Source: Candidatus Pacearchaeota archaeon
GTDB taxonomy: Archaea > Nanobdellota > Nanobdellia > Pacearchaeales > GW2011-AR1
Assembly: GCA_017609285.1 (NCBI GenBank)
Contig: JAFCEE010000002.1
Location: 8,152 to 72,151 of the forward strand
Length of the DNA stretch: 64,000 nucleotides
Direction of reading: 5' to 3'
This document shows, piece after piece, positions 28,897 to 63,603 of the stretch. How positions within the stretch are numbered: position 1 is the stretch's first letter; every line of letters starts with the position of its first letter. Under the pieces are notes generated by a model. It was not told where the DNA came from, did not search any database, and saw only the letters and a program-made list of their open reading frames with translations. Position numbers and translations under genes: made by a program.

Positions 28897-28931
28897 GTTA
28901 TTTGGCTTATATTAGAAAATTCAATTTCAAA

Positions 28932-47501: not shown

Positions 47502-47999
47502 ATGACAATACTTTCACACCCATTCTTTACAGAACAAGTTCTTCCCTTCTTATTGGTTTTTACTTTAATTTTTGCTATACTTGATAAGACAAAAATATTG
47601 GGAGAAGGTAAAAGACAAATTAATGCTATAATCGGTCTTGTTGTTGCTTTGATGTTAATAGCTTTTCCTTTTCCAAGAAGCATAATTGTTAATTTAATGC
47701 CTCTTTTGGCGGTGTTAGCTGTTATTTTTTTAGTTTTCATTCTTTTATATACTTTTGCTTCAGGAGAATCTGAATTTAAAACTCCAAAAGGCTTGAAAAT
47801 AACTTTTGGCATTTTAATTGGTTTAGCTTTAATTATAGCTATTTTAGTCTTAACTGGATATTGGGACTTGGTTTTGAGAGCTGTTTTTGGGGGGGCTGGT
47901 TCAGAAATAGCTACTAATATCTTTTTTATTTTAATTATAATTGCTGCTATTGCTGTTGTTTTAGGAGCAGGCAAGGGTGGTGGAAGTTCTAAGAGTTAA
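47502..47999 (+). CDS. Membrane protein, paralogue 1 of 3
   Basis: 165 aa. N-terminal motif 'FFTEQVLPFLLVFTLIFAILDKTKILGEG', 4-5 TM segments, Gly-rich C-terminus. Confidence 0.6.
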   Translation: MTILSHPFFTEQVLPFLLVFTLIFAILDKTKILGEGKRQINAIIGLVVALMLIAFPFPRSIIVNLMPLLAVLAVIFLVFILLYTFASGESEFKTPKGLKITFGILIGLALIIAILVLTGYWDLVLRAVFGGAGSEIATNIFFILIIIAAIAVVLGAGKGGGSSKS

Positions 48000-48176: not shown

Positions 48177-48680
48177 ATGTTAGGAATAATGTTACAAGGA
48201 GCTGGTTTAGGTTTTCAGAATTTGCTCAGTCAATTAGAGAATTTAGGTTTTTTTCAATATGTTTTGCCTTTTTTATTGATATTTGCAGTTGTTTATGCTA
48301 TTCTTACAAGACTAAAAGTTTTTGAGAATAATAAAGGAGCTGCTCTTATAGTTGCTTTAGCTATTGGTTTATTGTCATTACAATTAGATTTTGTTCCTGC
48401 TTTTTTCCAGAATATTTTTCCTAAATTTGGTATTGGTCTTGCTGTATTGCTTGTTGCTTTGATATTAGCTGGAGCTTTTATTGCAGATGAAGAGAAAACT
48501 TACAAATGGATATTTTTTGGTTTAGGGGCTTTAATTTTTCTTGTTGTCGCCATTACTTCATTATCAGATTGGCAATTTGTTGGGAGTTGGTGGTGGAACC
48601 AATATGGTGGTTTAATTATTACCTTAATTGTTGTTATTGCTGCTGTAATTGGAGTTATTATAGCAAGTAAAAAATCTTAA
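48177..48680 (+). CDS. Membrane protein, paralogue 2 of 3
   Basis: 167 aa with 'FFQYVLPFLLIFAVVYAILTRLKVFENNKG'. Confidence 0.6.
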   Translation: MLGIMLQGAGLGFQNLLSQLENLGFFQYVLPFLLIFAVVYAILTRLKVFENNKGAALIVALAIGLLSLQLDFVPAFFQNIFPKFGIGLAVLLVALILAGAFIADEEKTYKWIFFGLGALIFLVVAITSLSDWQFVGSWWWNQYGGLIITLIVVIAAVIGVIIASKKS

Positions 48681-48687
48681 AGAGAAA

Positions 48688-49152
48688 ATGGCAATTGATA
48701 TTTCAGGTTTAAGTTATTTTATGCCTATTTTTGGTTTTCTATTTGTTTTTGTTATTGTTTATGCTCTATTATCTAAAACAGAATTATTGGGAGATAATAA
48801 ATTCATTAATTTACTTATTAGTTTTATTATTGCTGTTATCTTTTCTACTTTGGGGAGTATGCAGGAGTATGTTCAGACAGTTACGCCATGGTTTGTTGTT
48901 TTAGTTATTGCTTTATTTTTTATACTCATTATTATTGGTTTGAGTCAACAAAAAATTAGCGAGGTAATGAAGCCAGGTTTTGTTTGGGTTTTTATTATTC
49001 TTCTTATACTTGTGTTTTTAATTTCAGCAATAAAAGTTTTTTCTATATGGCAGCCCATTAAAGAGTTTGTTACTATGGAAGGGAGTATTGCCGGAGCAAT
49101 AATCTTATTGATTATTGCTGCTATAACTGCTTGGGTTTTGACTAAAAGTTAG
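48688..49152 (+). CDS. Membrane protein, paralogue 3 of 3
   Basis: 154 aa with 'YFMPIFGFLFVFVIVYALLSKTELLGDNK'. Confidence 0.6.
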   Translation: MAIDISGLSYFMPIFGFLFVFVIVYALLSKTELLGDNKFINLLISFIIAVIFSTLGSMQEYVQTVTPWFVVLVIALFFILIIIGLSQQKISEVMKPGFVWVFIILLILVFLISAIKVFSIWQPIKEFVTMEGSIAGAIILLIIAAITAWVLTKS

Positions 49153-49166
49153 GATAATTTGTTTGT

Positions 49167-49967
49167 TTATCTTCTTAAATAGTGTTCTATTCCTGACTTC
49201 TTTTTACCTGTCTTTTTTACTTGTTTCTTTTTTGCTGTTGTTATTTTTGTTTTTGGTTTTTTAAAGCTAGGAAGAGCTTTAGAAAAAGATTCTTGCATTA
49301 AGAACATTTCTTTTTTTATATCTTGTAAGCTTTGTCCGTAACTGCCTATCTTTCCTATAATTGATGCTTGCAATTTGTCAATTATTTCTTCTATTTTTTT
49401 GAGTCTTTCATCTATGTTTTTAATTTTTCTTTCTGCTGTTGTTTTAAAATTAGAAAATAAACCTAATTCTTTTTTTAATTTGTTAAGCTTTTCATCTACT
49501 ATTTGTTCTGCTATGTCTGTTACTGTTTCTGTTTCCATTTGAGGTTGATAAGGTTGATATTCTGGGTAGTATGTTTGAGGAGTTGGATAAATATATTCGG
49601 GAGTTTCTTCTATAGTTTCTGCAGGGACTGGAGCAGGCTCTGTTGGTTGTGGTTGTATTGGAGCTGTTTCTGGAGGAGCTTGAGCTATTTCAGAAGCTTG
49701 TGGTTGGGGTGTTGTAGTCGGTGAAGGAAGAATAGATGGTTTCATCTCTTCTGCCTCTAAAGATTGGGTTTCAGGGGAGGTCATGGTTTGGGGAGGAGCC
49801 ATTCCTTGTTGTGTTTCATCTGGAGAAATAGCTGCTTTAATTTTTGCCTGCTCTAAAGCTTGTTGTATTTCAAGAGGTTTAACTCCTTGTTCTTTTAGTT
49901 GTTGACTTATCTGCTCGTCAGATAAACCTTTTTCTTTCATAGATTTTACTTGGTCTAGCAAAGGCAT
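49167..49967 (-). CDS. P/Q/T-rich linker + C-terminal coiled-coil protein (FlaC_arch-like segment, tentative)
   Basis: 266 aa. The N-terminal helical module is 'LSDEQISQQLKEQGVKPLEIQQALEQAK'. A roughly 90-aa P/Q/T/E-rich stretch follows. The coiled coil is 'ERKIKNIDERLKKIEEIIDKLQASI'. The tail is basic. Confidence 0.5.
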   Translation of the reverse strand: MPLLDQVKSMKEKGLSDEQISQQLKEQGVKPLEIQQALEQAKIKAAISPDETQQGMAPPQTMTSPETQSLEAEEMKPSILPSPTTTPQPQASEIAQAPPETAPIQPQPTEPAPVPAETIEETPEYIYPTPQTYYPEYQPYQPQMETETVTDIAEQIVDEKLNKLKKELGLFSNFKTTAERKIKNIDERLKKIEEIIDKLQASIIGKIGSYGQSLQDIKKEMFLMQESFSKALPSFKKPKTKITTAKKKQVKKTGKKKSGIEHYLRR

Positions 49968-49968: not shown

Positions 49969-50283
49969 TTATTTTTTTAGTGGCTCAAATATTTTAAATT
50001 GTCTTTCTAACATTTCTACCTCGCTTCTTCTGGCTCTTTTTTCTATTTCTTCTGTTAATCTAAGCAAAGTAGTTTTTATTTTTTTAATATCTTCTTGCAT
50101 CTCTTGTACATCTAACTTTAATTCTGTTACTTGTTTGTCTAGATTTTCTTTACTTTCAATTAAATTCTGTCCTATTAATAAAACTCTTTCTTTTAATAAT
50201 CTTTGTCTTTCTTCTATATCTCTGAGTTTGGTATTAAATTCTGTTAATAATGGAGTTACAAAATCCTGTTGTTCTTCTGGCAT
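49969..50283 (-). CDS. Small coiled-coil protein
   Basis: 104 aa with heptad-rich sequence. It lies 1 nt upstream of 49167..49967. Confidence 0.5.
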   Translation of the reverse strand: MPEEQQDFVTPLLTEFNTKLRDIEERQRLLKERVLLIGQNLIESKENLDKQVTELKLDVQEMQEDIKKIKTTLLRLTEEIEKRARRSEVEMLERQFKIFEPLKK

Positions 50284-50460: not shown

Positions 50461-52758
50461 ATGATGTTCAAAAAAGGCACTGCCTTGTATGCTTATGAGG
50501 TTATGAGGGAAGTAGGAGAAGATGTTATGTATATTAATTATCTTGGAAGTCCTTTAATTCCAAGCTTATCCGATAATGCAGAAGTTATGGCTAGGACAAT
50601 AGATGCTTTAATAGAAAGTCCTAATGTATCGAGAATAGTTTTTGTTCAGCAAAGAAACTATAATTATGACTTTAGAGAAGTTTCTTTGTTGCTTGAAATA
50701 GCTCAATTATACACATATCTTGTAAAACAAGAGAAAATTTTAGGCCCTGAAAGATTAGTTATGCAGTGTCAGCAATGTTTGGGAAAAAGACATAATGATA
50801 TGACTTATTTTCTCATGTTGCTGAAACAAGACCCCATATCTGCTTATTTAGAGGCTAAAAGATTTCTGAGAGAAGAAAGAAATTTGTTAGAGAAAATTCC
50901 TGTTGAATGCAAGGTCTGCCAGATGAATTATATAAGGTTATTAGAGAAAATTTCAGCTTTAATGGAAAATCTAACTTTGATTAAAGAAGCAAGTCCTTTT
51001 TTAGATAGTCATAAAATAGGGGGCAGGGAGATATACCAACAGTTCTTTAGGCCTGACATTATTCCAAATTTTACTTTTACAAGATTAGTTGCCAGTCTTC
51101 CTGAGGACGCAGAGATTATTGATGAATATACCATAGGAAAAGGTTATGATAAATCTACTGTTACGATATTAAAGAAAAAAAATGAAGCAAAATATATCTA
51201 TCATTTAACTCCTCCTGAATATGTTTTAGATGAGGACTTTCATTTGTTATTGAATCTAGCAAGAAATGTTTTAATAGAGCATAGACCTAGACAAGAGGAA
51301 TTTACAGATATTGAAAGGACAAGACAGGTTTTTTTTAATGTATCAAGAGATTTATTACAGGAGTTGAGTGGGAATAAAAAAATTAGTCTGACTTATAATG
51401 AGTTGAATAAATTAGCAACAATATTGGTTAGGCATACAATTGGTTTTGGTTTATTAGAGGTTTTGTTGCAAGATTCTAAAATACAAGATATTGTTTTAAA
51501 TGCACCTATTGCCTTAAATCCTATTTTTGTAAGACATCAGAATTATGATGAATGTTTAACTAATATTTTACCAAGTCATGAAGATGCTGACTCCTGGGCT
51601 GCTAAATTGAGGATGTTATCAGGTAGGCCTTTAGATGAAGCAAACCCTATTTTAGATACTGACTTGTTGCTGGGAAAAATAAGGGCGAGAGTAGCTGTAA
51701 TACAACAACCTTTATCACCGAGGGGCTTGTCTTATGCTTTACGTAGACATAGAGAAGAGCCATGGACTCTTCCTTTATTTATCAAGAATAAGATGATAAA
51801 TAGCTTTACTGCTGGTTTGCTTTCCTTCTTAATTGACGGTTCTAGGACAATGTTGATAGCTGGAACTAGGAGTTCAGGTAAAACATCTATGTTAGGAGCT
51901 TTAATGTTAGAGATTATGTCTAAGTTAAGAATAATATGTTTAGAGGACACCCTTGAGCTTCCTGTTGAAAGTTTAAGAAAATTAGGTTATGATATTTTGA
52001 GAATGAAAGTCAGGTCAGCCTTATTACAAAAAACTACTGAGGTGGCGGCAGATGAAGGTATAAGAACTAGCTTAAGGTTTGGTGATTCTTGTTTGATAGT
52101 AGGCGAGGTTAGAAGTATAGAGGCAAAGGCTTTATATGAAGCTATGAGAGTAGGGGCTTTGGCTAATGTTGTTGCAGGTACAATACATGGAGCTTCCCCT
52201 TATGCCGTATTTGATAGAGTTGTTAATGATTTGGGAGTTCCTGTTACAAGTTTTAAGGCTACTGATGTTGTTTTAGTTTGTAATCCTGTTAAATCTCCGA
52301 GTGGATTACAATCATGGAAAAGAGTAGTCCAATTATCTGAAGTAAGGAAATACTGGACTAAAGATCCTCTTGAGGAGAAGGGTTTTGTCGATCTGCTTAA
52401 GTATAATGTTGATAAAGATGAGTTAGAAGCAAGTCAAGAATTAATTAATGGTGATAGTGAAGTTATAAAACAAGTAGCTTCTGGAGTGAAAGGATGGGCT
52501 GGGAATTGGGATGCTGTTTATGATAATATTCTCCTTAGAAGTAGAATAAAAGAGGAATTAGTTAAGGTGGCTGAAAAATTAAAACAACCAGAACTTTTGG
52601 AAGCTAAATTTAATTCTCTTGCCAACAACGCTTTTTATGAAATATCTGAGCAGGTAAGAGAAGAAATTGGTTTGCCTGTAAGCGAGAAAGTTTTTCCTTT
52701 ATGGCAGGAATGGTTGAAGAAGGAAGTAAAGAGAGTTAAAGAGAAAGGCGAGATTTAG
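50461..52758 (+). CDS. Type II/IV secretion-family ATPase (archaeal pilus assembly ATPase, FlaI/PilB-like) with long N-terminal extension
   Basis: 765 aa. Walker A is 'AGTRSSGKTS', the Walker B region is 'DSCLIVGEVRSIEA', and the His-box region is 'VAGTIHG'. About 330 aa precede the core. Confidence 0.85.
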   Translation: MMFKKGTALYAYEVMREVGEDVMYINYLGSPLIPSLSDNAEVMARTIDALIESPNVSRIVFVQQRNYNYDFREVSLLLEIAQLYTYLVKQEKILGPERLVMQCQQCLGKRHNDMTYFLMLLKQDPISAYLEAKRFLREERNLLEKIPVECKVCQMNYIRLLEKISALMENLTLIKEASPFLDSHKIGGREIYQQFFRPDIIPNFTFTRLVASLPEDAEIIDEYTIGKGYDKSTVTILKKKNEAKYIYHLTPPEYVLDEDFHLLLNLARNVLIEHRPRQEEFTDIERTRQVFFNVSRDLLQELSGNKKISLTYNELNKLATILVRHTIGFGLLEVLLQDSKIQDIVLNAPIALNPIFVRHQNYDECLTNILPSHEDADSWAAKLRMLSGRPLDEANPILDTDLLLGKIRARVAVIQQPLSPRGLSYALRRHREEPWTLPLFIKNKMINSFTAGLLSFLIDGSRTMLIAGTRSSGKTSMLGALMLEIMSKLRIICLEDTLELPVESLRKLGYDILRMKVRSALLQKTTEVAADEGIRTSLRFGDSCLIVGEVRSIEAKALYEAMRVGALANVVAGTIHGASPYAVFDRVVNDLGVPVTSFKATDVVLVCNPVKSPSGLQSWKRVVQLSEVRKYWTKDPLEEKGFVDLLKYNVDKDELEASQELINGDSEVIKQVASGVKGWAGNWDAVYDNILLRSRIKEELVKVAEKLKQPELLEAKFNSLANNAFYEISEQVREEIGLPVSEKVFPLWQEWLKKEVKRVKEKGEI

Positions 52759-52801
52759 TAAGGTTTATAAAGTTACTAAAGGTTACTTTTAGTAACCTAA
52801 T

Positions 52802-52975
52802 ATGCCTGACGCTGTAGTAAAAATAGATAAGGAACTGGTAAAGAAAATTGAAAACTTTATTAGGAGGAATAGGTTTCTTTATACAAGTAAGAAACAGGTA
52901 GTTAATTTAGCTATAATTGAATTTTTAAACTCACATACACTTAAACTTAAGAGTAAAGGTAAAAAAAAGAGGTAA
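52802..52975 (+). CDS. Unannotated 57-aa ribbon-helix-helix-like protein
   Basis: Not in the track. It encodes 'MPDAVVKIDKELVKKIENFIRRNRFLYTSKKQVVNLAIIEFLNSHTLKLKSKGKKKR'. The strand-helix-helix pattern fits an RHH. Its stop lies 1 nt before the platform gene ATG. Confidence 0.55.
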   Translation: MPDAVVKIDKELVKKIENFIRRNRFLYTSKKQVVNLAIIEFLNSHTLKLKSKGKKKR

Positions 52976-52976
52976 A

Positions 52977-55133
52977 ATGCCCAATATTGATGAAATTTTT
53001 AGGAAATACGGGAGAAAGTTAGAGCAAGAGATTAATACAGAAAGGTCAGACGTAGGTAAGTTTAGTAAAGAGTATCTACAATTTAAAAAAGATATGTTGC
53101 CAGAATTATCAAGATATGAAAGCTGGTGTCATACATTAGGGAATATTATCCGATTAAAAGTGGCAAGGAAAGACGAAGAAAAAATCCAAAAACAGTTAGA
53201 TATAGCTCATCTTGACGTAAGTCCAAGTCAAACAATAACCTTGGCTATAGTTTCTCTTTTACTGATTTTTTTTGTCGGTGTTTTAATTTCTCTTGCCTTA
53301 TTCATAATTTCTGGAGACTTTCCTTTTATATTTCTTTTTTTAATTTTAATAGCGAGTTTGTTTTTATTTTATTATTTTTATTCAATGCCAGCGAGATTAG
53401 CTAATAAGTGGCGTTTAAAAGCTTCTTCGCAAATGGTGCCTTGTATTTTGTATATTGTGGCTTATATGAAACACACCTCTAATTTGGAAAGAGCTATAGC
53501 TTTTGCTTCTCAACATCTTTCTCCTCCTTTGTCTTTAGATTTAAGAAAAGTTTTTTGGGATATAGAAACAGGAAAATTCACTAACATCAAAGATTCTTTA
53601 GATTCATATTTAGAGACATGGAGGGAAAGCAATATAGAGTTTATAGAAAGTTTTCATTTAATAGAAAGCAGTTTATATGAGCCTTCTGAAACAAGGAGAA
53701 TAGAGGTTTTGGAGAGAGCTTTACAAGTCATTCTTGATGGTGTATATGAAAAAATGTTAAAATATTCTAGAGAAGTTAGAAGTCCTTTAACTAACTTGTA
53801 TATGTTGGGCATAGTCTTACCTACTTTAGGTATTGCTTTACTACCTCTTGCTTCTACTTTGTTGGGAGGGGTTTTGCAGTGGTATCATGTTTTTATTTTG
53901 TTTAATTTAATTATACCTTTTTTTGTTTTTTATTTAACTAGTGAAGTGTTATTGAAGAGGCCTGGAGGTTATGGAGAAACAGAATTACTTGAGATGAATC
54001 CTAGGTATGCAAAATTTAAGAGCAAGAAGCCTTACCTTACTGCTTTTTTAATATGTGTGCCTTTTTTAATTATTGGCTTATTACCATTTATATTTCAGTA
54101 TACTGGCTTCCCTGAAATTATAGGTTTGGAAAAAGACTATAGCTTTTCACAATTTGGAATTAAATTTTTGCAGGATATGAAGCTTTTTGATTTTAAATCT
54201 GTTGAGGGAGGCGGAGTAGTCGGACCTTATGGATTATTTGCAGTTATATTAGGTTTATTTATTCCTTTTTCAATAGCTTTATTTTTTTCAATAGCTTATA
54301 ACAAAAAAACAAAAGAGTTGATTAAAACAAGAGAGGAGAGTAAAAAATTAGAGAGTGAATTTACTAATAGTTTGTTTCAGTTAGGAAATAGATTAGGAGA
54401 CGGTACTCCTGCTGAAATTGCTTTCGCTCATATTGCTGAATCAACAAGAGGACAGGTTACAGAAGGTTTTTTTAGAACTGTAAATACTAATATACAACAA
54501 CTTGGAATGTCTCTTGAAGAAGCTATTTTTAATAAAAGGAGAGGAGCCATTATTTATTATCCTTCTGCTTTGATTTCTACAAGTATGAAAATCTTGGTAG
54601 AATCTGTAAAAAAAGGTTTACAAGTTGCAGCAAGAGCATTAATGAGCATTTCTGAATATATTAAGAATATATACAAGATTAATGAGAGAATGCGTGATTT
54701 GTTAGCTGAAGTTGTTAGTGATATGAAGAGTAATATGACTTTTCTTGCTCCTCTGTTAGCTGGAATTGTAGTAGGTTTGGCTAGCATGATTACTATTATA
54801 CTAAATAAATTACAAGTTATGTTTGAGATGCAAGGAGAATTTGAAGTTACTGGTTTAGGAAATGTTTCTGGTATACTTGAAATTTTTGATTTAACTGCTA
54901 TGATATCACCATATTTTTTACAAGTTGCGATTGGAATTTATATTATTGAGATTATTTTTATTCTTTCTAATACATTAGTAACAGTAGATGCAGGAGAGGA
55001 CAAGTTAAGGGTTGTATATGAAACAGGAAAAAATTTGAAGAGAGGAATAATACTTTATTTAATTGTAAGTTTTATAGCTATACTTTCTCTTGCTTTGTTA
55101 GCGAGTATAGCTTTAGGAGGATTAAGTGTTTAG
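52977..55133 (+). CDS. Polytopic platform protein, FlaJ/TadC/PilC (T2SSF)-like
   Basis: 718 aa. Clusters of TM helices are separated by two helical cytoplasmic domains. Its position is directly after the ATPase. Confidence 0.65.
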   Translation: MPNIDEIFRKYGRKLEQEINTERSDVGKFSKEYLQFKKDMLPELSRYESWCHTLGNIIRLKVARKDEEKIQKQLDIAHLDVSPSQTITLAIVSLLLIFFVGVLISLALFIISGDFPFIFLFLILIASLFLFYYFYSMPARLANKWRLKASSQMVPCILYIVAYMKHTSNLERAIAFASQHLSPPLSLDLRKVFWDIETGKFTNIKDSLDSYLETWRESNIEFIESFHLIESSLYEPSETRRIEVLERALQVILDGVYEKMLKYSREVRSPLTNLYMLGIVLPTLGIALLPLASTLLGGVLQWYHVFILFNLIIPFFVFYLTSEVLLKRPGGYGETELLEMNPRYAKFKSKKPYLTAFLICVPFLIIGLLPFIFQYTGFPEIIGLEKDYSFSQFGIKFLQDMKLFDFKSVEGGGVVGPYGLFAVILGLFIPFSIALFFSIAYNKKTKELIKTREESKKLESEFTNSLFQLGNRLGDGTPAEIAFAHIAESTRGQVTEGFFRTVNTNIQQLGMSLEEAIFNKRRGAIIYYPSALISTSMKILVESVKKGLQVAARALMSISEYIKNIYKINERMRDLLAEVVSDMKSNMTFLAPLLAGIVVGLASMITIILNKLQVMFEMQGEFEVTGLGNVSGILEIFDLTAMISPYFLQVAIGIYIIEIIFILSNTLVTVDAGEDKLRVVYETGKNLKRGIILYLIVSFIAILSLALLASIALGGLSV

Positions 55134-55167
55134 TTAAATTTATATTTATAGAAGGATTGTGAAAAAT

Positions 55168-55344
55168 ATGAAAAGAGGAAAAAGAGAGAAGGGTAAGAGT
55201 GGCGCTATAGAATTAGAAATGTTAGCTTGGTGGATTATAGCTTTGATTATTCTTGTTTTGATTATTATTGCTTATTTTATTTTGTCAGAAAAAGGAGCTG
55301 GCATAATTGAACATATGAAGAATTTGTTTAGGTTTAGAAGATGA
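55168..55344 (+). CDS. Class III signal-peptide (pilin-like) mini-protein
   Basis: 'MKRGKREKGKSG/AIELEMLAWWIIALIILVLIII'. The ATG is at 55168; the track start is a GTG at 55159. Confidence 0.55.
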   Translation: MKRGKREKGKSGAIELEMLAWWIIALIILVLIIIAYFILSEKGAGIIEHMKNLFRFRR

Positions 55345-57158
55345 ATAAAAAAGGGGCTGAACTTGCGATTAGGAAACTGGTTTTGATAGTAATTATTCTT
55401 CTGGTTTTGTTTATAGCTTTACTTGCTTTTGTTCCTATGTTTAGGGAAAAAGTTTTAGGATGGATTAGGGGTTTGCCAGAATATAAATACGAATATGATG
55501 AGGAAATTGATGTTAGTGAGTTAAGTGATGAGGAAAGGGCTGGTTTGTGTTCTGGAGATTTGTTTGTAGGAAAAATAAAAGGAGAAACTGAGAGGGCAGG
55601 AGGAACAAAAAGCTTTATTGATATTTATTACGACGAGTTTGGAATAAAAACCTTGCTTTATTGGAGTGGGAATGACAGAAATGCTGAAATAAAAGTATTT
55701 ATTCCAGGTTGGTTTTGGGGTAAGAAAGATGTTGTTGTGGCAGAAGTGAAAAATAGAAAAATTAGTGTAAAAAAAGAATTTTTAGATAAAAGTGAGGCAT
55801 ATATTGCTTTGAATAATAAAATAATAAAAGAAACAGATAGGGAGTGGGGGTTGCCAGGTACAGAAGTGTTTGAACTTTTAGATAATGCTTATTATAGATC
55901 AGGAAATCTTATTTGTAGAACTGAACTTTCCCAATTTCAAATATGCGAAAAAGCGTGGCAGGAATTAAAAAATAAGAAATTTACTCTTATTTTTAAAGGA
56001 AAATGTGGGGTAGATAAAAATAATATTATTAACTTTAGAGAATGGGGTACCTGTTGTTTAGAAGTTAGCAATCTTTTCTTGAAAACAGGAGAAAAAGAAC
56101 AGCAATGGTATTGGACACCAGATAATACAAATTTTTGCGAAGAATTTTCTAATTATGATTTTGACTTGATATTTGATACAAAAACACAATTTTGGAAAGT
56201 TAAAGTTTGGATTCCTGAAAAAGGAGAAGTTTTGTATTTTGGAGGAGGAGATTGTTCTCAACCTTTAGGTTATTATAATTGTGAACTCGGATTTGAAGAG
56301 GGATTTGAAAAATATGGTGGGGTTTATGTTAGAGATGATGTAACTTGTAAGGAAGTAAAAGAAAAAGTGGTAAAGAAAGGAGAGTTTGATAAAATTAAAA
56401 ATTTAATTAAAAATAATTATTTTATTCTAAAAAGAGAAAATAAACCTTTGATTGAACCTTTATGTATAGATAGTGATGCGAAAACTAATCCGATAAAATT
56501 GAGATTTAAAGGTGGTTTTCTTGGACTTAGTAGTGGAGATGTTTATTTTGTTTGGCAAGCTGAAAAAAGAAAGGTACTTGCTTCTGAAAAAATTAACTTT
56601 ATTCTTGAAGAAGAGGACCCATTAGTGTATGATGCTGCAGAATTTGAAGCTGAATTAAATTCAAAGGGTAAAGATTCTGAGATATTTAATCATATAAATG
56701 ATATATGGGAAAATAATATAATTTTGTATATCCTAAAAGCAAAAGATTTAATAGAATTTATTGATAGGGTGACTTTAACATTCAATAACGCTGAAGATGT
56801 ATTTTATATTTTTCAGGGAGAACAGCCCTGGGATGACATTAGAAGAAACAGGCCTTATTATTTAGAATCTTGGCATAATCCTGGTTATTGTCTTGATAAA
56901 TACAGGGGAAAACATGATTGTAAGTTTTATAATTCAGACAAAAAAGAAGAAAGGATTTGCGAAATTAAGGATGATGGTAGAATATGTTTGGTTGGTAAGG
57001 AGGAAAAATGTGGAGAAACTTGTTTTTGTGAAGAAGATTATGAGGACGGTGATGAGTTAATTATATCAGACCTAAATATAGTTAAAGAAAGATGGAAAAT
57101 TGAAAAAGAATTTTGGGAAGGAAAAGCATATTTGTATTTAAATAAAGAAGGGAATTAG
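55341..57158 (+). CDS. Large Cys-rich class III signal-peptide protein (605 aa)
   Basis: 'MNKKG/AELAIRKLVLIVIILLVLFIALLAF'. I count about 18 Cys, with a dense C-terminal cluster 'RICEIKDDGRICLVGKEEKCGETCFCEE'. Confidence 0.7.
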   Translation: MNKKGAELAIRKLVLIVIILLVLFIALLAFVPMFREKVLGWIRGLPEYKYEYDEEIDVSELSDEERAGLCSGDLFVGKIKGETERAGGTKSFIDIYYDEFGIKTLLYWSGNDRNAEIKVFIPGWFWGKKDVVVAEVKNRKISVKKEFLDKSEAYIALNNKIIKETDREWGLPGTEVFELLDNAYYRSGNLICRTELSQFQICEKAWQELKNKKFTLIFKGKCGVDKNNIINFREWGTCCLEVSNLFLKTGEKEQQWYWTPDNTNFCEEFSNYDFDLIFDTKTQFWKVKVWIPEKGEVLYFGGGDCSQPLGYYNCELGFEEGFEKYGGVYVRDDVTCKEVKEKVVKKGEFDKIKNLIKNNYFILKRENKPLIEPLCIDSDAKTNPIKLRFKGGFLGLSSGDVYFVWQAEKRKVLASEKINFILEEEDPLVYDAAEFEAELNSKGKDSEIFNHINDIWENNIILYILKAKDLIEFIDRVTLTFNNAEDVFYIFQGEQPWDDIRRNRPYYLESWHNPGYCLDKYRGKHDCKFYNSDKKEERICEIKDDGRICLVGKEEKCGETCFCEEDYEDGDELIISDLNIVKERWKIEKEFWEGKAYLYLNKEGN

Positions 57159-57162
57159 AAAG

Positions 57163-58023
57163 ATGAGAAAAAAAGCAGATATATTAATGCCGGAATTTTT
57201 GAAATTGATGATAGCAGTAATTGTAATTGGTTTGCTTTTATATTTAGCTTATCAACTTTACGGAATTTTTATAGCTAAATCTGATTTAGAAAAAGCAAGA
57301 AGTACTTTAAATCAGATTGTTGGGAAAATAGAAAGTTTAGAAGAAGGTGAGAAAATAGATTATATAATTAATAGTCCTGAAGGTTGGAATCTTTTATTAT
57401 ATGAAGATGAATCTTTATGTGATGGTGAGAAATGTTTATGTATTTGTGAAAAGAAAACTAAGAATAATTGTAAGAATTATGGTGTTTGTAAGGCTTTTCC
57501 TTATGAATATGAGCCATTTATAGAGGGATATTTTAATCCTAGGGAAATTGACAATGCACAGGTGCAATTTGGTATTTACCATTCTAAAAAAATTTTCCTT
57601 TCTAAAAATGATGGGATTATTTATTTTTTAAAAGATAAATTACATGAAAAAGAGAGAGATGTTTTAAATAATTTGTTAGTTTATGAATTTAAAAAGAAGA
57701 AGATTGAGAGTTATCTTAATGATTTTATTAATTCTGGAGGAAATAAAAAGTATTCTCAATTATATATGGCTATTAAAGATTATTTTGATAATCATAATTT
57801 GAAAGGAATTTTTAAAGTTGAAACAGAGGAAAAATATAATGAGGGGAGACCAATAGTTAAATTGGGAGAGATTTATTTTAAATTTGAAAAACCTGAAAGA
57901 TTCAGAGTTCAAGCAGGATTATGGAATATATATAAAACAACTAAAAAAATATCTGATGATAAAGGAAATATTTATGTAATTTCATTTATAGCTGATTTAT
58001 CTAATTATGAAAATGAAAACTAA
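57163..58023 (+). CDS. Pilin-like N-terminal anchor protein with Cys cluster (286 aa)
   Basis: 'MRKKADILMPEFLKLMIAVIVIGLLLYLAY' and the cluster 'CDGEKCLCICEKKTKNNCKNYGVC'. Confidence 0.6.
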   Translation: MRKKADILMPEFLKLMIAVIVIGLLLYLAYQLYGIFIAKSDLEKARSTLNQIVGKIESLEEGEKIDYIINSPEGWNLLLYEDESLCDGEKCLCICEKKTKNNCKNYGVCKAFPYEYEPFIEGYFNPREIDNAQVQFGIYHSKKIFLSKNDGIIYFLKDKLHEKERDVLNNLLVYEFKKKKIESYLNDFINSGGNKKYSQLYMAIKDYFDNHNLKGIFKVETEEKYNEGRPIVKLGEIYFKFEKPERFRVQAGLWNIYKTTKKISDDKGNIYVISFIADLSNYENEN

Positions 58024-58126
58024 AAAAGCCCAGATGTCAGAATTATTCAGGTATTTGTTGTGGATAGTTGTATTTTTAATTTTAGGGACAGGCTTATATT
58101 TGATGTTAAAAAAACTGATAGGATAA
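58007..58126 (+). CDS. Unannotated 39-aa pilin-like mini-protein
   Basis: Not in the track. It encodes 'MKMKTKKAQMSELFRYLLWIVVFLILGTGLYLMLKKLIG'. It overlaps the 3' end of the previous gene in another frame. Confidence 0.4.
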   Translation: MKMKTKKAQMSELFRYLLWIVVFLILGTGLYLMLKKLIG

Positions 58127-58156
58127 AAATTTAAATTAAAGAGTATTGGTAAGGAA

Positions 58157-59293
58157 ATGTTAAGAGGAATAAAAAGAGGGAAAAAAGCAGCATTAAGTGC
58201 GAAAATGATAGTCACAATTATCTTACTTATAATGGGTTTTATTATTTTACTTTTTTTTATGTTGAGATTTGTTTGGACTGAAAGAGTTGATAAAGAGGTT
58301 TGTCATGAATCTGTGATTTTAAGAGCTACTTTACCTTCTATTGTCAAAGAATATATTCCTTTAAAATGCAAGACAGCTAAATACTGCATAACTACTAGTG
58401 GATTTTTAGGAATTGGTGGTGGAAAATGTAATGGTAAAGGAGAGGCTTTTCAAGGCGAGAAAGGTATAACTAAAGTTAAAGTTAAAAGTAAAGAAGATAT
58501 AGAAAGGTTTCTTGCTAGAGAAATTATTGATTGTTGGAGTATGATGGGAGAAGGAAAAGTTTCTTTGTTTACTCAGCATATGGCTAAAAACTTTGGTGTT
58601 GGAGGAATTAGTTCTTCTTGTGTCATATGCAGTAGAATTGCTTTTGATAATGAAAGTTTAGTTAAGGCAGGGATTAATTTTAGTGAGATTGATGTTTTAA
58701 ATTATATGGCAACTCATAAAGCTCCTAATAAAGATGTTTCTTATCTTGAGTATTTGGTGGGGGAAAAAGGAAAAATAAGTATAAAAACTGATGAAGATAT
58801 CAAGGAAGTTGTGAAGTCTTTTTCTGAAATTAAAGAAAGTGAGACCTTTAAAAAAGAATTTAAGGAAGAAGATTTGAGTGGAGAGATAAATTTGGAAGAG
58901 GTTTCAGAAGAAGAAATAAATAAAGCTGATGAAACACAGAAGGAGTTTGCTATTATGTTTATGCAGGTTATAGCTCCTAAACATTCAGATGTTCTGAAAA
59001 ATACTGCTTATGTTGCTTTTGGCGGAGCAGGAGCTAGCGCTATTTTATCCCCTATAACTACAATTAAGGTTATTGGAAGCGTTGTTTTTTGGAAAATAGC
59101 TCTGCCTGTGGCTGCTCTTTTCACAGCTGGCCAACACGTTAATGTTATGATACAGAGAGATATTGCAGCAGGTTATTGTGGAGATGTTTCTGTTGGTGGA
59201 GAGGCAAGAGATGGTTGTTCAGTAGTCAGGACAATAAATTATAATATAGATGATTTAACAAAATATTGTTCTATTATTGAGAGCATACCTTAA
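58157..59293 (+). CDS. Class III signal-peptide-like protein (378 aa), Cys-rich
   Basis: 'MLRGIKRGKKA/ALSAKMIVTIILLIMGFIILLFF'. It has about 12 Cys, an acidic insert, and a second hydrophobic region near the C-terminus. Confidence 0.6.
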   Translation: MLRGIKRGKKAALSAKMIVTIILLIMGFIILLFFMLRFVWTERVDKEVCHESVILRATLPSIVKEYIPLKCKTAKYCITTSGFLGIGGGKCNGKGEAFQGEKGITKVKVKSKEDIERFLAREIIDCWSMMGEGKVSLFTQHMAKNFGVGGISSSCVICSRIAFDNESLVKAGINFSEIDVLNYMATHKAPNKDVSYLEYLVGEKGKISIKTDEDIKEVVKSFSEIKESETFKKEFKEEDLSGEINLEEVSEEEINKADETQKEFAIMFMQVIAPKHSDVLKNTAYVAFGGAGASAILSPITTIKVIGSVVFWKIALPVAALFTAGQHVNVMIQRDIAAGYCGDVSVGGEARDGCSVVRTINYNIDDLTKYCSIIESIP

Positions 59294-59294
59294 A

Positions 59295-59675
59295 ATGAGA
59301 AAAACTGGAATGTTAATACTTGGAGAAATAATATTTTTTTCTTTAAATGCTGTTTTTTTTATAATTATGTTAATTTTTGTTGTTAGTAATGCTAATGGCA
59401 AGCCTATTTATGAACAAGCATATGCTAAACAAATCGCTTTAATGATAGATGAAGCAAAGCCAGGTATGACTTTTTCTTTAAATATGCGGGATGTTGTTGA
59501 GAAATATGATAGGGAGTTGTCAGAGATTATAAAAATAGACAATAATGAAAAGAAAGTTGTTGTTAAATTAGGTTCAAGAGGTGGTTATAGTTATAGATTT
59601 TTTACTCAAGCTAAGATAGAATCTAAAGTTCAGGAAAAATATAATATTATAATCAGTGTAAAGGAAAATGAATAA
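59295..59675 (+). CDS. Pilin-like protein (126 aa)
   Basis: 'MRKTG/MLILGEIIFFSLNAVFFIIMLIFVV'. The ATG at 59295 lies 1 nt after the previous stop. Confidence 0.55.
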   Translation: MRKTGMLILGEIIFFSLNAVFFIIMLIFVVSNANGKPIYEQAYAKQIALMIDEAKPGMTFSLNMRDVVEKYDRELSEIIKIDNNEKKVVVKLGSRGGYSYRFFTQAKIESKVQEKYNIIISVKENE

Positions 59676-60207
59676 TTTATTAAGGAATAAAAAGGGAGGA
59701 GAAAAGTATCTTAGTATTTGGTGGTTTTTTGTTTTAGTTGTTATTGCTGGTGGAATTGTTATGGTTATATCTGCTTATAATGTTTCTGATATTTCTACTA
59801 AAAAATTAGAATCATATATCTTAGTTACGAGATTTGTTGATTGTGTTGTTGATTCCGGCTATTTAAATGAAAAATTTTTGGCTGGGAATTTTGATATCTT
59901 TAAGAGTTGTTATTTAAGTAGGGAAATTATAGAGGATGGAAAACATTATTTTGCCTATGAAGTTTACAAACTTAATGATTGTAAATATGAAAAAGGAATG
60001 TTGAAATGTAAAGAGCCATTAATTTCAAACTCTTTTGGCGTAACCGATTTTAAAAATCAATGTAAGATTAAAGAAAAAATGAAAGAAGCTAAACACTATC
60101 CTGAATGTTCTGAAAAGAAGATTTATGTTTTAAGTAAAGAAAAAGAAAAATTAATGATGTATGTTGTTGCTGGTTCAAATCAAAAAATTAAGAAAGAAGT
60201 ACTTTAA
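59668..60207 (+). CDS. Pilin-like protein (179 aa), Cys-containing
   Basis: 'MNNLLRNKKGGEKYLSIWWFFVLVVIAGGIVMVI' with 7 Cys. Confidence 0.55.
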   Translation: MNNLLRNKKGGEKYLSIWWFFVLVVIAGGIVMVISAYNVSDISTKKLESYILVTRFVDCVVDSGYLNEKFLAGNFDIFKSCYLSREIIEDGKHYFAYEVYKLNDCKYEKGMLKCKEPLISNSFGVTDFKNQCKIKEKMKEAKHYPECSEKKIYVLSKEKEKLMMYVVAGSNQKIKKEVL

Positions 60208-60208
60208 A

Positions 60209-60826
60209 ATGGTAAGAAAGTTAAGAAGTAAAAAGGGACAAGTACCTTCTGCACTAACTTGGATTGTTGCTTTTCTTATAATATTTTTTATTATGTTCTT
60301 GTTTGTGTCTGCTTCACTTATTATTATAGGAAAGAGGAAAATTCCGATAGTTGAAGGGGGGAAAAGTAAGATTGGGATCGAAAAGGCGAGAAGAAATTTA
60401 ATAGAGAGTGAGATACTTTTTGCTTTATTAGAAACAAAAATTTATGGCATTAAATTAAGAGAAAGGATTTTAGAATGGAATAAGATACAACCTATTTCTA
60501 GTGAAGAGAGAGAGAATACAAGAAAAAAAATTGAAAATGAAGTTAGCGACATTCTTTTTTTATATGAAAACTGCAAATATATTTTTGATGTAGATGCTGT
60601 TCCTGAAAATTTGAGAAATATGCCTGTAGATCCAAGAGGAGCAGGGCCTTATTATAGAGCAATTTCTTATTATAAATTAAGAAAAACAAACATTCAGCCT
60701 GTTACAAGCGACCCTCGCGGAATGCAGTATTTTACAAGCTATTTTAATGCTCTTTTAAATCAAGCATCCAAAATAAATATAGGAAAGGAAAATCCAATAT
60801 GGGTTAGATTTTATTTAGAGTGTTAA
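60209..60826 (+). CDS. Pilin-like protein (205 aa)
   Basis: 'MVRKLRSKKGQVPSALTWIVAFLIIFFIMFLFV'. The ATG at 60209 lies 1 nt after the previous stop. Confidence 0.55.
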   Translation: MVRKLRSKKGQVPSALTWIVAFLIIFFIMFLFVSASLIIIGKRKIPIVEGGKSKIGIEKARRNLIESEILFALLETKIYGIKLRERILEWNKIQPISSEERENTRKKIENEVSDILFLYENCKYIFDVDAVPENLRNMPVDPRGAGPYYRAISYYKLRKTNIQPVTSDPRGMQYFTSYFNALLNQASKINIGKENPIWVRFYLEC

Positions 60827-60827
60827 A

Positions 60828-61163
60828 ATGAAACGTAAAAAGGGAGCTACTATCATTTCAATTTTGTTACTTGTGTTTATAGCTTTGGCTTTATCTGCCT
60901 CAACTTTGTTTGTTCTTCTAACTAATGAGAAAGTAGAGAAGATAATTTCTGATGCAAGATTTTTGGAGAAAGTTTATTTTAAAGAAGAGCAGATTAAATT
61001 TTTTTTGAATCAAAATGTAAGTGTTGAAGAGGCCGTCAGATTAATTGAAGGGGCCAAATTAGTAGGAGAGGAAATTGAAATTACAGAAGAATTAGAAACT
61101 AAAGAAGGTAAAATTAATGTAGTGTATAGATTTAAACCAAACAAAAATAGGGAAAAGATTTAA
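60828..61163 (+). CDS. Class III signal-peptide pilin-like protein (111 aa)
   Basis: 'MKRKKG/ATIISILLLVFIALALSAS'. Confidence 0.65.
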   Translation: MKRKKGATIISILLLVFIALALSASTLFVLLTNEKVEKIISDARFLEKVYFKEEQIKFFLNQNVSVEEAVRLIEGAKLVGEEIEITEELETKEGKINVVYRFKPNKNREKI

Positions 61164-61196
61164 AAATATACCCGACTTAAGTTAAGCAAGAAAAAG

Positions 61197-61640
61197 ATGG
61201 TGAAAAATAAAAAAGGAGCTGAACTTACTATAGGAACTTTAGTTGTTATAGTTTTAGCTATAATAGTTTTAGTTGTGTTAGCTTTGGGATTTGGAACTGG
61301 CTGGACTAATTTGTGGAGCAAGATTACAGGTTATTTTTCTCCAGTTAATGTTGATGCTGTTAAGCAGGCTTGCGTTTATGCTTGTACTACTAATGCTAAA
61401 TATGATTGGTGTTATAGGGTTAGGGAGATAAAGTATGAACAAGGTCAGCCAAAAATAAAAATTACTTGTGATAGTTGGAGTAATGATAAACTTGCTTTAG
61501 GAAAATCAGAAAATTTGCCTTCTCAACTCCTACATATGCTTGAGAAATGTGATAATATTGAATGTCCTAGCGCAGAAGGATCAGAAACTTCACCCACAAG
61601 TAGAGATTCAGAAACAGCCCTTCCTGAGGGGGGAGGATAA
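61197..61640 (+). CDS. Small Cys-patterned pilin (147 aa), candidate major pilin
   Basis: 'MVKNKKG/AELTIGTLVVIVLAIIVLVVLALG' and the Cys pattern C-x3-C-x8-C...ITC...C-x4-C. The tail is S/T/E-rich. Confidence 0.7.
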   Translation: MVKNKKGAELTIGTLVVIVLAIIVLVVLALGFGTGWTNLWSKITGYFSPVNVDAVKQACVYACTTNAKYDWCYRVREIKYEQGQPKIKITCDSWSNDKLALGKSENLPSQLLHMLEKCDNIECPSAEGSETSPTSRDSETALPEGGG

Positions 61641-61681
61641 TTTAACACCAAATTTAAAAACATCTTTTTCTTATTTTTAGC

Positions 61682-61981
61682 ATGAATAAAAAAGGTTTTG
61701 AGTTAACTATTAACACTCTTGTTATAATAGTTCTTGCCTTACTTGTTTTATTAGCTTTAAGTTTAGCTTTTACTGGAGGATTTAAGAAATTCTGGCGAGA
61801 AATTAAGGGTTATTCTGGGAGTGAAATTGATTCTTTGAGTAAGATATGCCAGAGTCAGTGTGTTCAGGGAAATAAGTATAGTTTCTGTTGCGAAAAAAAG
61901 ATATTGGGTAAGGAAGAGATAACATGTTTAGATAAAAGGTTAAATGTTGATTGTGAGATAAGTTGCAGAGGAGTTTGTTGA
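61682..61981 (+). CDS. Small Cys-patterned pilin (99 aa), paralogue of 61197..61640
   Basis: 'MNKKG/FELTINTLVIIVLALLVLLALS'. 'ICQSQCVQGNKYSFCC...ITC' parallels 'ACVYACTTNAKYDWC...ITC'. Confidence 0.7.
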   Translation: MNKKGFELTINTLVIIVLALLVLLALSLAFTGGFKKFWREIKGYSGSEIDSLSKICQSQCVQGNKYSFCCEKKILGKEEITCLDKRLNVDCEISCRGVC

Positions 61982-61982
61982 A

Positions 61983-62099
61983 ATGTCAGAATTTGTATAT
62001 CCTGAGAAAAGAAAGAAGAAGAAACATAAGAAAAAAGAGAAAAAGAGATTTCCTTATAAAAAAGGTGGAAAGTATAGAGGTAGTAAGATAAAAGGTTGA
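61983..62099 (+). CDS. Possible 38-aa highly basic peptide
   Basis: Not in the track. It encodes 'MSEFVYPEKRKKKKHKKKEKKRFPYKKGGKYRGSKIKG'. The ATG lies 1 nt after the pilin stop. It could be a chance ORF in A-rich DNA. Confidence 0.25.
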   Translation: MSEFVYPEKRKKKKHKKKEKKRFPYKKGGKYRGSKIKG

Positions 62100-62160
62100 A
62101 GTTAGAGAAAAAAATTTAGATTTTAGCAAATCTTAAAAAGCTTTATTGATAAAATATTAA

Positions 62161-63036
62161 ATGATTAGCTTTTTGATTTTCCTTGCTTTAATCTGGCTTG
62201 TAATAGCTTCAATGCAAGATATAAAAAAAAGAGAAGTTCCAAATTGGTTGTCTTTTTCCCTTATTTTGTTTGCTTTAGCTTTTCGTTTGATTTACTCTGT
62301 TATTAATTCTGATGCTTGGTTTTTTTTGTTTGGCTTATTCGGTTTTATGATTTTTTTCTTGTTAGCTTATATGTTTTATTATGCAAGAGTTTTTGCTGGC
62401 GGCGACGCTAAACTTTTAATGGGTATTGGGGCTGTTTTACCTTTAAGTTTTAGTATGTATTATAATTTGATTTTATTCGGAACCTTTATTTTTCTTTTTT
62501 TGTTAACAGGAGCAGTCTATGGTTTGGTTTATTCTTTTGTGTTAGTTGCCTTAAACAGAAAAAAATTTTCTAAAGAGTTTTTTAAGCAGTTTAAATTAAG
62601 AAAAAACCTAGTTTTTATCTTTTTAATTCTAGCTTTGACGAGTTTGATTTTTGTTATTTATTCTAGAGAATTTTTATTATTACTTTTGCCTTTCCCAATT
62701 TTTATTTTCCCTATGCTTTTTATTTATGCTAAGGCAGTAGAGGAGAGTTGTATGGTTAAGGAAGTTAATAGTAAGGATGTGGTGATTGGAGATTGGTTGT
62801 ATGAAGAGATTGTAGTAAAATTTAGTGGAAAAAGAAAAAAAATTAAGCCTTGTTGGGAAGGTTTGAGTGAAGAAGAGGTTGAGTTATTGAAAAAGGCGAG
62901 GAAAAAAGTAAAAATAAAACAAGGCATACCTTTTGTTCCTTGTTTTTTAGTTTCCTTTTTATTATTCTTATGGTTATGGTATTCTAACTGGAGCTTTTTC
63001 CAGTGGTTTTGGCTTTTTAGCTTTAATTTTCCTTGA
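62161..63036 (+). CDS. Prepilin/preflagellin peptidase (A24 family, PibD/FlaK-like)
   Basis: 291 aa, polytopic. The first Asp motif is '[15 protein letters not shown]' and the second is '[13 protein letters not shown]'. Confidence 0.85.
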
Positions 63037-63603
63037 TTTTCTTTTTTTAACTTTTAATTTTTCCTGTACCTGTTTTAGCTCTTCTTCTTTTGCTTTATAT
63101 TTTTCTAATTTTTTATTTTTATAAATTGGAATTACATTTATAGTGGCGTGCTCAAATATTTCAGCTGTTTGTATACTTATGCTTTCAGCTTTTAGTTTAG
63201 ATTTTATTTTTCTTGCTATTTTTTTAGCCAGGGTAAATGCTGATGAATGAAGTTTGTCTATTTTGAGATGTTTTTTTGGAATTATTAGTGTATGGCCTTT
63301 ACTTAGGGGATTTATTTCTAGTACTGCTATACTTTCTTTATCCTCATCTATTTTATAAGAAGGAATTTTCCCTTCTACTATTAAGCAGAAAGGACATTGT
63401 TGCTCTGTTGCCGGGTTTGGTTGTTTTTCTTTATTAGAGGTTTTAATCAGCTTGTTTTGGATGAGAAACTGTTCTAGTTGTTTTGGATTTAAGGATAAAA
63501 TATATCTTCTTGCTTCCTCCTTTTTTTCTTCATTTGTTTGCCAAGAATCAATTTGCTTCAAAAGTTGAGATTTTATATTCTTAACTTGTCCTTCTGATAA
63601 CAT
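62974..63603 (-). CDS. HIT-fold protein with degenerate histidine triad and Lys-rich tail
   Basis: 209 aa. '[43 protein letters not shown]' is a typical HIT N-terminal half. The triad position reads 'EHATINVIP' instead of HxHxHxx. Confidence 0.65.

Follow-up and report, generated by a model that had tools for sequence, protein, structure and literature searches.

What is built by the long run of genes at positions 50461-63036 of the DNA examined here? The whole stretch that we analysed, called the window below, comprises 64,000 nucleotides from Candidatus Pacearchaeota archaeon (GenBank assembly GCA_017609285.1, contig JAFCEE010000002.1, positions 8,152 to 72,151), and the genes in question encode a secretion ATPase, a small ribbon-helix-helix (RHH)-like protein, a polytopic membrane protein, eleven pilin-like proteins and a prepilin peptidase. 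A first-pass annotation had recognised in them the parts list of an archaeal type IV filament system, and the analysis bears this out, with an ATPase, a platform protein, an A24 peptidase and class III-like substrates all present. We put the probability at roughly 0.8 that the locus encodes a complete machine, specific to its lineage, for assembling an archaeal type IV filament (TFF). This machine is the standard version of Pacearchaeota/Woesearchaeota-type DPANN archaea, and its filament is probably an adhesive pilus.

The locus holds the parts of a type IV filament system

Positions 50461-63036 form a continuous string of genes on the + strand, in which every listed open reading frame (ORF) was found in place. 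With the most plausible start codons, neighbouring genes are spaced by -17 to +61 nt, in keeping with the tiny gaps and overlaps first described for this single-strand string; two of these likely starts, ATG 59295 for the gene called p132 below and ATG 60209 for p221, each lie 1 nt past the preceding stop. The genome had also been judged DPANN-like, and this held: the nearest relatives of the locus are metagenome-assembled genomes (MAGs) of Pacearchaeota and Woesearchaeota, and the window (G+C about 29%) encodes both subunits of archaeal PolD at 28902-33966. In a collection with one genome per species, 397 stretches match the locus. The comparison set consists of about 80 related loci from this collection, and the loci retained are titled Pacearchaeota, Woesearchaeota, Nanoarchaeota or plain "archaeon"; tblastn counts are given out of 81 loci and hidden Markov model (HMM) counts out of 82, the window included. 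Many of the related loci are incomplete at their ends, so the per-family locus counts are lower bounds.

The first gene (50461-52758) encodes a secretion or assembly ATPase of 765 aa in the GspE/FlaI/TadA superfamily, which matches Pfam T2SSE at 47.4 bits (cut-off 24.9). In NCBIfam it scores highest against FlaI (132 bits, equivalog cut-off 550) and TadA (122.6 bits, cut-off 373), and among PDB sequences Archaeoglobus fulgidus GspE2 (2OAP, 113 bits) ranks above CpaF (74 bits) and FlaI (63 bits). The Walker A, Walker B and His box of a GspE/PilB/FlaI/TadA ATPase of the TFF superfamily are all present, as GTRSSGKTS (residues 468-476), a Walker-B-like CLIVGEVR and TIH, and they are kept in orthologues. 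The first-pass annotation had put the N-terminal extension of this protein at about 330 aa. Relative to A. fulgidus GspE2 it shrinks to about 190-215 aa, because the alignment begins at residue 216 of the query (residues 216-638 against 27-423 of the 2OAP chain). The extension is common to the family, 60 of 62 orthologues being longer than 700 aa, and it had no match in Pfam or PDB searches. A zinc ribbon within it was considered and rejected, with C103, C106, C150 and C153 kept in only 5-8 of 60 orthologues.

The polytopic protein of 718 aa encoded at 52977-55133 belongs to a large family. A word-index search gave more than 4786 matches, the top 120 of them 66-90% identical, and clustering at 50% leaves 1228 representatives; none of the top 120 has a Pfam domain, and their named sources are Nanoarchaeota or Pacearchaeota. 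Among 43 sampled relatives (24-58% identical), 16 match Pfam T2SSF, with a best E-value of 3.2e-10, and three match Spore_III_AB. The T2SSF matches map to residues ~157-290 and ~466-595 of the window protein. An AlphaFold (AF2) model is all-helical, with a mean predicted local distance difference test (pLDDT) score of 78 and a predicted TM-score (pTM) of 0.77, and Foldseek found local matches between this model and the cytoplasmic domains of EpsF, OutF, PilC and SpoIIIAB at probabilities of 0.87-1.00. Target-normalised TM-scores of these matches are 0.54-0.72 (0.63-0.72 for EpsF, OutF and PilC), at a root-mean-square deviation of about 3 Å. An hhalign comparison of the N-terminal half with the C-terminal half gave a probability of 0.3, at an effective number of sequences (Neff) of only 1.8. 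Because its relatives match T2SSF and its model matches EpsF, OutF and PilC locally, we accept the protein as a divergent platform, with two predicted T2SSF repeats in a single gene. The T2SSF-family platform of a TFF system is thus found here indirectly, through relatives and the model.

The string ends with a gene (62161-63036) for a FlaK/PibD-like A24 prepilin (class III signal) peptidase of 291 aa, which matches Pfam Peptidase_A24 at 52.8 bits (cut-off 26.5). In NCBIfam it scores 47.6 bits against FlaK and 16.1 bits against EppA, and it aligns to FlaK 3S0X (E 1.7e-10) across the FlaK Asp motifs QDFRSRE and GGGD. The two catalytic aspartates of a TFF-type A24 peptidase are represented by D20 and D82 (GGD), invariant in all 41 orthologues, which confirms an earlier reading of both Asp motifs.

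Between the platform and the peptidase, eleven ORFs (61, 605, 286, 39, 378, 132, 179, 221, 111, 147 and 99 aa, named p61 to p99 after their lengths) encode a basic leader and then a hydrophobic segment, which begins within the first 40 residues in all eleven. Window-wide, [KR][GA] followed by a hydrophobic segment was found in 13 of the 92 ATG ORFs that reach 60 aa, and 8 of the 13 lie inside the 7-kb pilin block, a clustering that exceeds chance. At the family level the leader is sharper still: N-K-[KR]-[GA] stands directly before the helix in 82-100% of the orthologues of each of the ten families that have seven or more sequences, and the median leader is 6-11 aa long across these families (6-8 aa in nine). 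It is by this family-level motif that class III substrates are recognised here, and their cleavage is predicted. When the families were compared by hhalign, they shared only their N-terminal 30-45 residues, and only p147 and p99 are homologous throughout; a shared N-terminus of this sort is the pattern expected of type IV pilin-like proteins.

The cysteine load remarked on in the first pass is real, at 2.34% in the pilin-like proteins versus 0.94% elsewhere in the window. Alignments show conserved Cys columns, and the number of cysteines is even in 59/60 orthologues of p378, 40/41 of p147 and 32/33 of p99. Because of this conservation and these even counts, the cysteines point to structural disulfides in predicted extracellular domains.

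A candidate major subunit, a conserved core and variable slots

The HMM searches group the pilin-like proteins into a single-copy core, a semi-conserved set and the p147/p99 family. A candidate for the major filament subunit is p147 (61197-61640), whose alignment hardly varies over the first ~80 residues but is hypervariable in the Cys-rich C-terminus. All 41 orthologues carry the [KR][GA]+hydrophobic motif, with E at position +2 in 78%; a PDB profile search with the family gave no match. A second candidate is the paralogue p99 (61682-61981, 8 Cys), which hhalign aligns to p147 over the full length (probability 100%, E 1e-40) and which has the motif in 33/33 orthologues. The family is present in 56/82 loci, with one or two copies per locus. 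Given the invariant N-terminal ~80 residues, the hypervariable, disulfide-rich and presumably exposed C-terminus and this copy number, we favour p147/p99 as what is probably the bulk, or major, filament subunit.

The single-copy core comprises five proteins. The most widespread, p61 (55159-55344; 72/82 loci by HMM, motif in 40/41 orthologues), consists of the leader, one hydrophobic helix and a short tail, GKG..AI.FIKNLFRF, without a globular domain. Six conserved cysteines characterise p286 (57163-58023), which was found in 67/82 loci, with the motif in 41/47 orthologues and the Cys columns kept in 42-45 of 46. For p378 (58157-59293; 61/82 loci by HMM), whose ten cysteines are mostly conserved, an AF2 model (pLDDT 76.7) shows an N-terminal helix of 44 residues that leads into an alpha/beta domain and a helical hairpin. 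The remaining two are p132 (59277-59675; 60/82 loci, motif in 49/54 orthologues), the window copy of which has KTG in place of K[KR]G, and p179 (59668-60207; 59/82 loci, motif in 35/39 orthologues), with four conserved cysteines. A mini class III-like ORF, p39 (58007-58126), has positional equivalents in relatives: a class III-like ORF of 35-58 aa precedes the p378 orthologue in many of 41 loci. Only two tblastn matches to p39 itself were obtained, because the ORF is so short.

Other positions are occupied less regularly. The semi-conserved p221 (60161-60826) and p111 (60828-61163) were found in 37/82 and 39/82 loci, with the motif in 14/15 and 11/12 orthologues, respectively. A variable slot is filled in the window by the class III-like p605 (55341-57158), which contains 18 cysteines and has no Pfam match. 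Its family occurs in 23/82 loci, all seven orthologues carry the motif, and the proteins at this slot range from 171 to 641 aa; we regard p605 as a candidate adhesin.

In one Woesearchaeota MAG, the p221 orthologue (L034:16515-17735, + strand) combines a class III-like N-terminus, …KSKKA/TLGKTLTWVSSFIMIFF, with a C-terminal Pfam Amidase_2 domain (N-acetylmuramoyl-L-alanine amidase; 73 bits, residues 194-389). A pilin-like protein with a predicted peptidoglycan-hydrolase cargo hints at interaction with bacterial cell walls.

The locus is the norm of its lineage

The first-pass annotation had singled out this locus for an unusually large number of pilin-like genes, and this does not survive comparison. 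In the 41 loci that contain both platform and peptidase, the median number of class III-like ORFs between the two is 9 and the mode 10, with a range of 5-12 in 40 of them; the remaining locus scored 0 because its peptidase gene is on the opposite strand. By the same counting rule the window has 10, or 11 with p132, and is thus the lineage norm. Nor is the locus singular in its makeup: dozens of species have these families, arranged in the same order. The consensus begins with three membrane-protein genes (m165, m167, m154), which converge on two coiled-coil genes (cc266, cc104); there follow, in the direction of the window locus, ATPase, (RHH), platform, p61, (p605), p286, (p39), p378, p132, p179, (p221), (p111), p147, (p99) and the A24 peptidase, which converges on a HIT-family gene.

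A second arrangement was seen in L017, L021, L025, L026, L029, L035 and about 25 other loci, in which the platform gene, still placed between ATPase and pilin block, is the only one inverted and p378 lies ahead of p286. This implies a small inversion that became fixed in a large subclade. Routine annotation identifies only the ATPase and the peptidase of the locus and leaves the platform and about ten subunits as 'hypothetical'.

Relation to known filament systems

The closest description of such a locus is that of Hamm et al. (2024), who reported that cluster-2 DPANN conserve two type IV pilus-like loci, in which a CpaF ATPase and TadC are accompanied by coiled-coil proteins (PMC11291902, Fig. 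4). As presented there, the lineages are Woesearchaeota, Pacearchaeota, Nanoarchaeota, Nanohaloarchaeota, Aenigmarchaeota and Undinarchaeota, and several proteins of these loci were detected in a nanohaloarchaeal proteome (PMC11291902). The locus studied here resembles those loci in its CpaF/TadA-like ATPase, its TadC-like platform and its adjoining coiled-coil genes; cc104 and cc266 lie beside the ATPase gene, and diverge from it, here and in 51-55 of 81 Pacearchaeota/Woesearchaeota loci. In the sections of that paper that treat these loci, the only filament proteins named are FlaF and PilA, in Locus 1, and the description does not extend to a peptidase-terminated block of about ten class III genes, a conserved core or the N-K-[KR]-[GA] motif (PMC11291902). 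Makarova et al. (2019) described pilus islands in DPANN, with 'dark matter' signal-peptide genes that are probably pilins (PMC6393860).

The first-pass annotation saw no obvious match to the characterised Aap, Ups, Epd and bindosome loci, whose gene content we took from the literature for this comparison, and we agree: scores against FlaI, BasE, FlaK and EppA all fall far short of the respective equivalog cut-offs. The Epd system, or TFF 'System 1', belongs to ATPase clade 1 of Methanococcales and has two platform genes and an EppA-type peptidase (PMC4858521; 10.64898/2026.04.22.720090); it has been reported in some DPANN (Makarova et al. 2016, PMC4858521; Sivabalasarma and Albers 2026, 10.64898/2026.04.22.720090). 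Of the known systems it comes closest to our locus in complexity, with an ATPase, a platform, at least five minor pilins, a dedicated peptidase within the locus and extra membrane proteins, and some of its pilins lack a globular domain, much like p61 and p39. Our locus differs in having one 718-aa platform that contains both T2SSF repeats, with no second platform homologue in the window, and in its FlaK/PibD-like peptidase, which scores 16.1 bits against an EppA cut-off of 450, whereas System 1 has the EppA/EpdA peptidase with nine transmembrane segments. Unlike the Epd system, moreover, it has no FleN/MinD ATPase that we could see, and its pilin families have no detectable similarity to known ones.

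With the bacterial Tad/Flp pilus the locus shares an ATPase that matches TadA (123 bits) and CpaF structures (74 bits), very short Flp-like subunits (p61, p39) and a peptidase without a methyltransferase domain. However, the TadA score of 122.6 bits is well below the cut-off of 373, the platform is a single protein instead of a TadB/TadC pair, no secretin or other outer-membrane component is present, as befits an archaeal monoderm, and there are many more pilin-like genes, with disulfide-rich globular domains. The ATPase core itself, with its N-terminal and RecA-like C-terminal domains, is most like A. fulgidus GspE2 (2OAP) and FlaI (4IHQ/4II7), which are its best sequence matches, but the locus ATPase has ~200 extra N-terminal residues that are kept within its family.

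How the machine may work and what else it could be

From these parts, a working order can be proposed. About ten precursors would be inserted in the membrane with a short leader ending in N-K-[KR]-[GA], and the A24 aspartyl peptidase encoded in the operon would remove this leader at the cytoplasmic face, using D20 and D82. A hexameric GspE2/FlaI/TadA-like ATPase would dock onto the two-repeat T2SSF-type platform, and ATP would drive the processed subunits out of the membrane, their hydrophobic N-terminal helices packing together so that a filament is stacked up at the surface. The p147/p99 family would supply the bulk subunit. The core proteins p61, p286, p378, p132 and p179, together with the mini-ORF p39, most likely form a priming or tip complex, or else a membrane-proximal assembly complex, and the variable p605, p221 and p111 would be tip adhesins or cargo. 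The RHH protein would regulate the operon, and cc104 and cc266 would serve as ATPase-linked accessories. The resulting filament would adhere to host cells or surfaces; a role in host attachment or uptake, as proposed in the first pass, may be surmised.

Several results pull in the other direction. The platform protein, annotated as FlaJ/TadC-like, gave no direct T2SSF match in Pfam or NCBIfam, and a search of PDB sequences with the single sequence and two profiles yielded at best EpsF at E 0.36; the link to T2SSF runs instead through relatives and local folds. Most of the T2SSF matches in those relatives are themselves below the Pfam gathering score, which only one of ten relatives scanned individually exceeds, and the whole-query Foldseek E-values of the platform model are not significant (>0.4). 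The eleven class III signals fare unevenly too: a leader and hydrophobic segment are present in all eleven proteins, but a strict FlaFind-type regular expression matches only five. Proteins with KKG/AEL and KKG/FEL (the slash marking the predicted cleavage site) miss it solely through E at +2. A Pfam scan of 109 pilin-like orthologues brought up no consistent known pilin family, only single matches to Amidase_2, Flp1_like and Cleaved_Adhesin, and the p378 model has no fold match in PDB or BFVD. The major subunit could instead be p61, in the manner of the Flp and EpdE pilins, which lack a globular domain. Finally, the synteny of the coiled-coil and membrane-protein genes may reflect relatedness alone, the HIT gene being equally syntenic.

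Could the same genes build something other than an adhesive pilus? The many and diverse class III proteins with their variable slots, and the p221-family orthologue with a peptidoglycan amidase domain, would also suit a short pseudopilus or bindosome-like scaffold that displays or secretes class III-signal enzymes or binding proteins, and a 2026 preprint contends that binding proteins with class III signals often functionalise the TFF machines of archaea (10.64898/2026.04.22.720090). We consider this unlikely. The bindosome ATPase BasE reaches only 60 bits against a cut-off of 1000, no substrate-binding domain was found in proteins of the locus, nor any substrate-binding or enzymatic domain in the eleven pilin-like proteins of the window by Pfam and NCBIfam, and the conservation of p147/p99 is typical of a polymerising major pilin. 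A competence-type filament for DNA uptake, scavenging nucleic acids for a genome without nucleotide biosynthesis, would accord with the presence of one major and several minor pilins and a single ATPase, as in Com pili, and nucleotide scavenging is a plausible need of reduced DPANN genomes. But no ComEA, ComEC or DprA-like gene was found in the locus or among the scanned window ORFs, nor any DNA-binding domain in the pilin-like proteins, and we hold this proposal to be quite improbable.

The weakest case is that for a divergent archaellum, a rotary motility filament, to which we give hardly any credence. Its attractions are that FlaI is the best NCBIfam match of the ATPase (132 bits), that the peptidase is FlaK-like, and that the N-terminus of p147, G/AEMTIGTLVVIVLA, resembles those of archaellins. 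Yet the FlaI score is far under the equivalog cut-off of 550, both GspE2 and CpaF outrank FlaI in the PDB, and Pfam and NCBIfam scans of the window proteins and 109 orthologues found no FlaH, FlaF, FlaG, FlaC/D/E or archaellin domain, which upholds the earlier verdict that, lacking FlaH, FlaF and FlaG, the locus is not an archaellum. Archaellum ATPases are, in addition, described as the most minimal (10.64898/2026.04.22.720090, section 6), in contrast to the large extension seen here. We therefore retain the TFF assembly machine, with a filament that is probably an adhesive pilus, as the preferred reading of the locus.

Neighbouring genes and other features of the window

The small gene between ATPase and platform (52802-52975, +) encodes the RHH-like protein of 57 aa. 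The ORF is real and conserved, with 46-68% identity in nine loci by tblastn and a presence in 13/82 loci by HMM; the RHH label, on the other hand, comes only from a weak VapB (RHH) match of 15 bits and a sequence pattern resembling strand-helix-helix. The protein is a putative transcriptional regulator and probably regulates the operon. In the 43-nt gap that separates it from the ATPase gene, we read a TATA-like TTTATAAA at 52764-52771, and an inverted-repeat scan found a perfect repeat, GGTTACT-TTT-AGTAACC (52781-52797), whose end lies 4 nt ahead of the RHH start codon; an additional half-site, AGTTACT (52771-52777), is present upstream of the palindrome. Positions 52764-52797 are thus a candidate promoter and operator, possibly for autoregulation by the RHH protein.

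Upstream of the ATPase gene, and facing away from it, lie two genes on the - strand for coiled-coil proteins. The nearer, cc104 (104 aa, 49969-50283), is 177 bp from the ATPase gene, is conserved in 55/81 loci, and adjoins and diverges from the ATPase gene in the listed gene orders. The product of the other, cc266 (266 aa, 49167-49967; 51-53/81 loci), starts with a short helical module, continues with a P/Q-rich linker and finishes in a C-terminal coiled coil and a very basic tail. Wherever it occurs, cc266 neighbours cc104 and the ATPase gene, and the linkage of the three survives in the rearranged loci L018, L027 and L080. Both proteins are probably accessory components tied to the ATPase, and both genes are probably the 'CCP' genes reported beside CpaF/TadC in cluster-2 DPANN; a left boundary at 50461 probably leaves out these two ATPase-linked genes.

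Further upstream, three tandem genes on the + strand (m165, 47502-47999; m167, 48177-48680; m154, 48688-49152) encode membrane proteins, each about 160 aa long and containing several hydrophobic segments. These are conserved neighbours, syntenic with the ATPase in 34-47/81 loci, and paralogous (hhalign probability at least 99% between families); they have no Pfam match, and the trio may or may not belong to the filament system. A Pfam scan of 65 orthologues of the RHH, coiled-coil and membrane proteins returned only coiled-coil noise. On the other side of the locus, a HIT-family gene on the - strand (62974-63603) converges on the peptidase gene with a 63-nt 3' overlap. The pairing of the two is kept in 34 related loci and persists in L001, L016 and L022, although the pilin block there has moved, and synteny in this lineage therefore need not mean common function. 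Within the locus, a 38-aa ORF between p99 and the peptidase (61983-62099, +) encodes K/R almost throughout (MSEFVYPEKRKKKKHKKKEKKRFPYKKGGKYRGSKIKG). It has no hydrophobic segment and no tblastn homologue in the 81 related loci, and it is probably not a real gene or component.

Two observations concern other parts of the window. A tRNA of 95 nt at 26230-26324 (- strand) was found by Rfam at 44 bits and was not called by ARAGORN; introns are present in many archaeal tRNAs, and this one probably carries an intron. Two adjacent N6/N4 DNA methylase genes at 9113-10363 and 10360-11682 (- strand) adjoin a 570-aa ORF at 7412-9124 (+ strand) with a weak Mrr_N match, and 7412-11682 may be a restriction-modification island.

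Implications for Pacearchaeota and Woesearchaeota

Pacearchaeota and Woesearchaeota are abundant, uncultivated archaea with reduced genomes. The locus is no new kind of system, its kind having already been reported (PMC6393860 and, in the loci that it describes, PMC11291902); the value of the present analysis lies in annotation detail and experimental targets. For annotation, it provides the leader motif N-K-[KR]-[GA] and sorts the subunits into a single-copy core, a variable set and the p147/p99 family. Experimentally, p147/p99 is a candidate target for proteomics, antibody labelling and cryo-electron tomography.

A bolder reading, which we advance as a doubtful though attractive possibility, makes this the main cell-surface interaction machine of Pacearchaeota and Woesearchaeota, a distinct TFF subtype that attaches to hosts and perhaps breaches them. 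Such a subtype would be set apart by a platform that unites two repeats in one gene and has diverged too far for T2SSF models, a unique ATPase N-domain of ~200 aa, coiled-coil partners, and five invariant disulfide-rich minor pilin-like proteins without a known fold. The variable subunits would bear adhesins or a cargo that degrades cell walls, as the amidase fusion of a relative might illustrate. If true, some of the piliated ultra-small groundwater cells that were assigned to bacteria of the candidate phyla radiation (CPR) could be these archaea. In a groundwater study, type IV pilus components were stated to be missing in DPANN, and pili were used to call cells CPR (10.1101/2020.05.14.094862). 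That DPANN appear to lack pili would be due in part to routine annotation, which misses the platform and the subunits. We conclude that the locus is a conserved candidate surface-filament machine of Pacearchaeota and Woesearchaeota, one that bears on how these archaea make contact with other cells.

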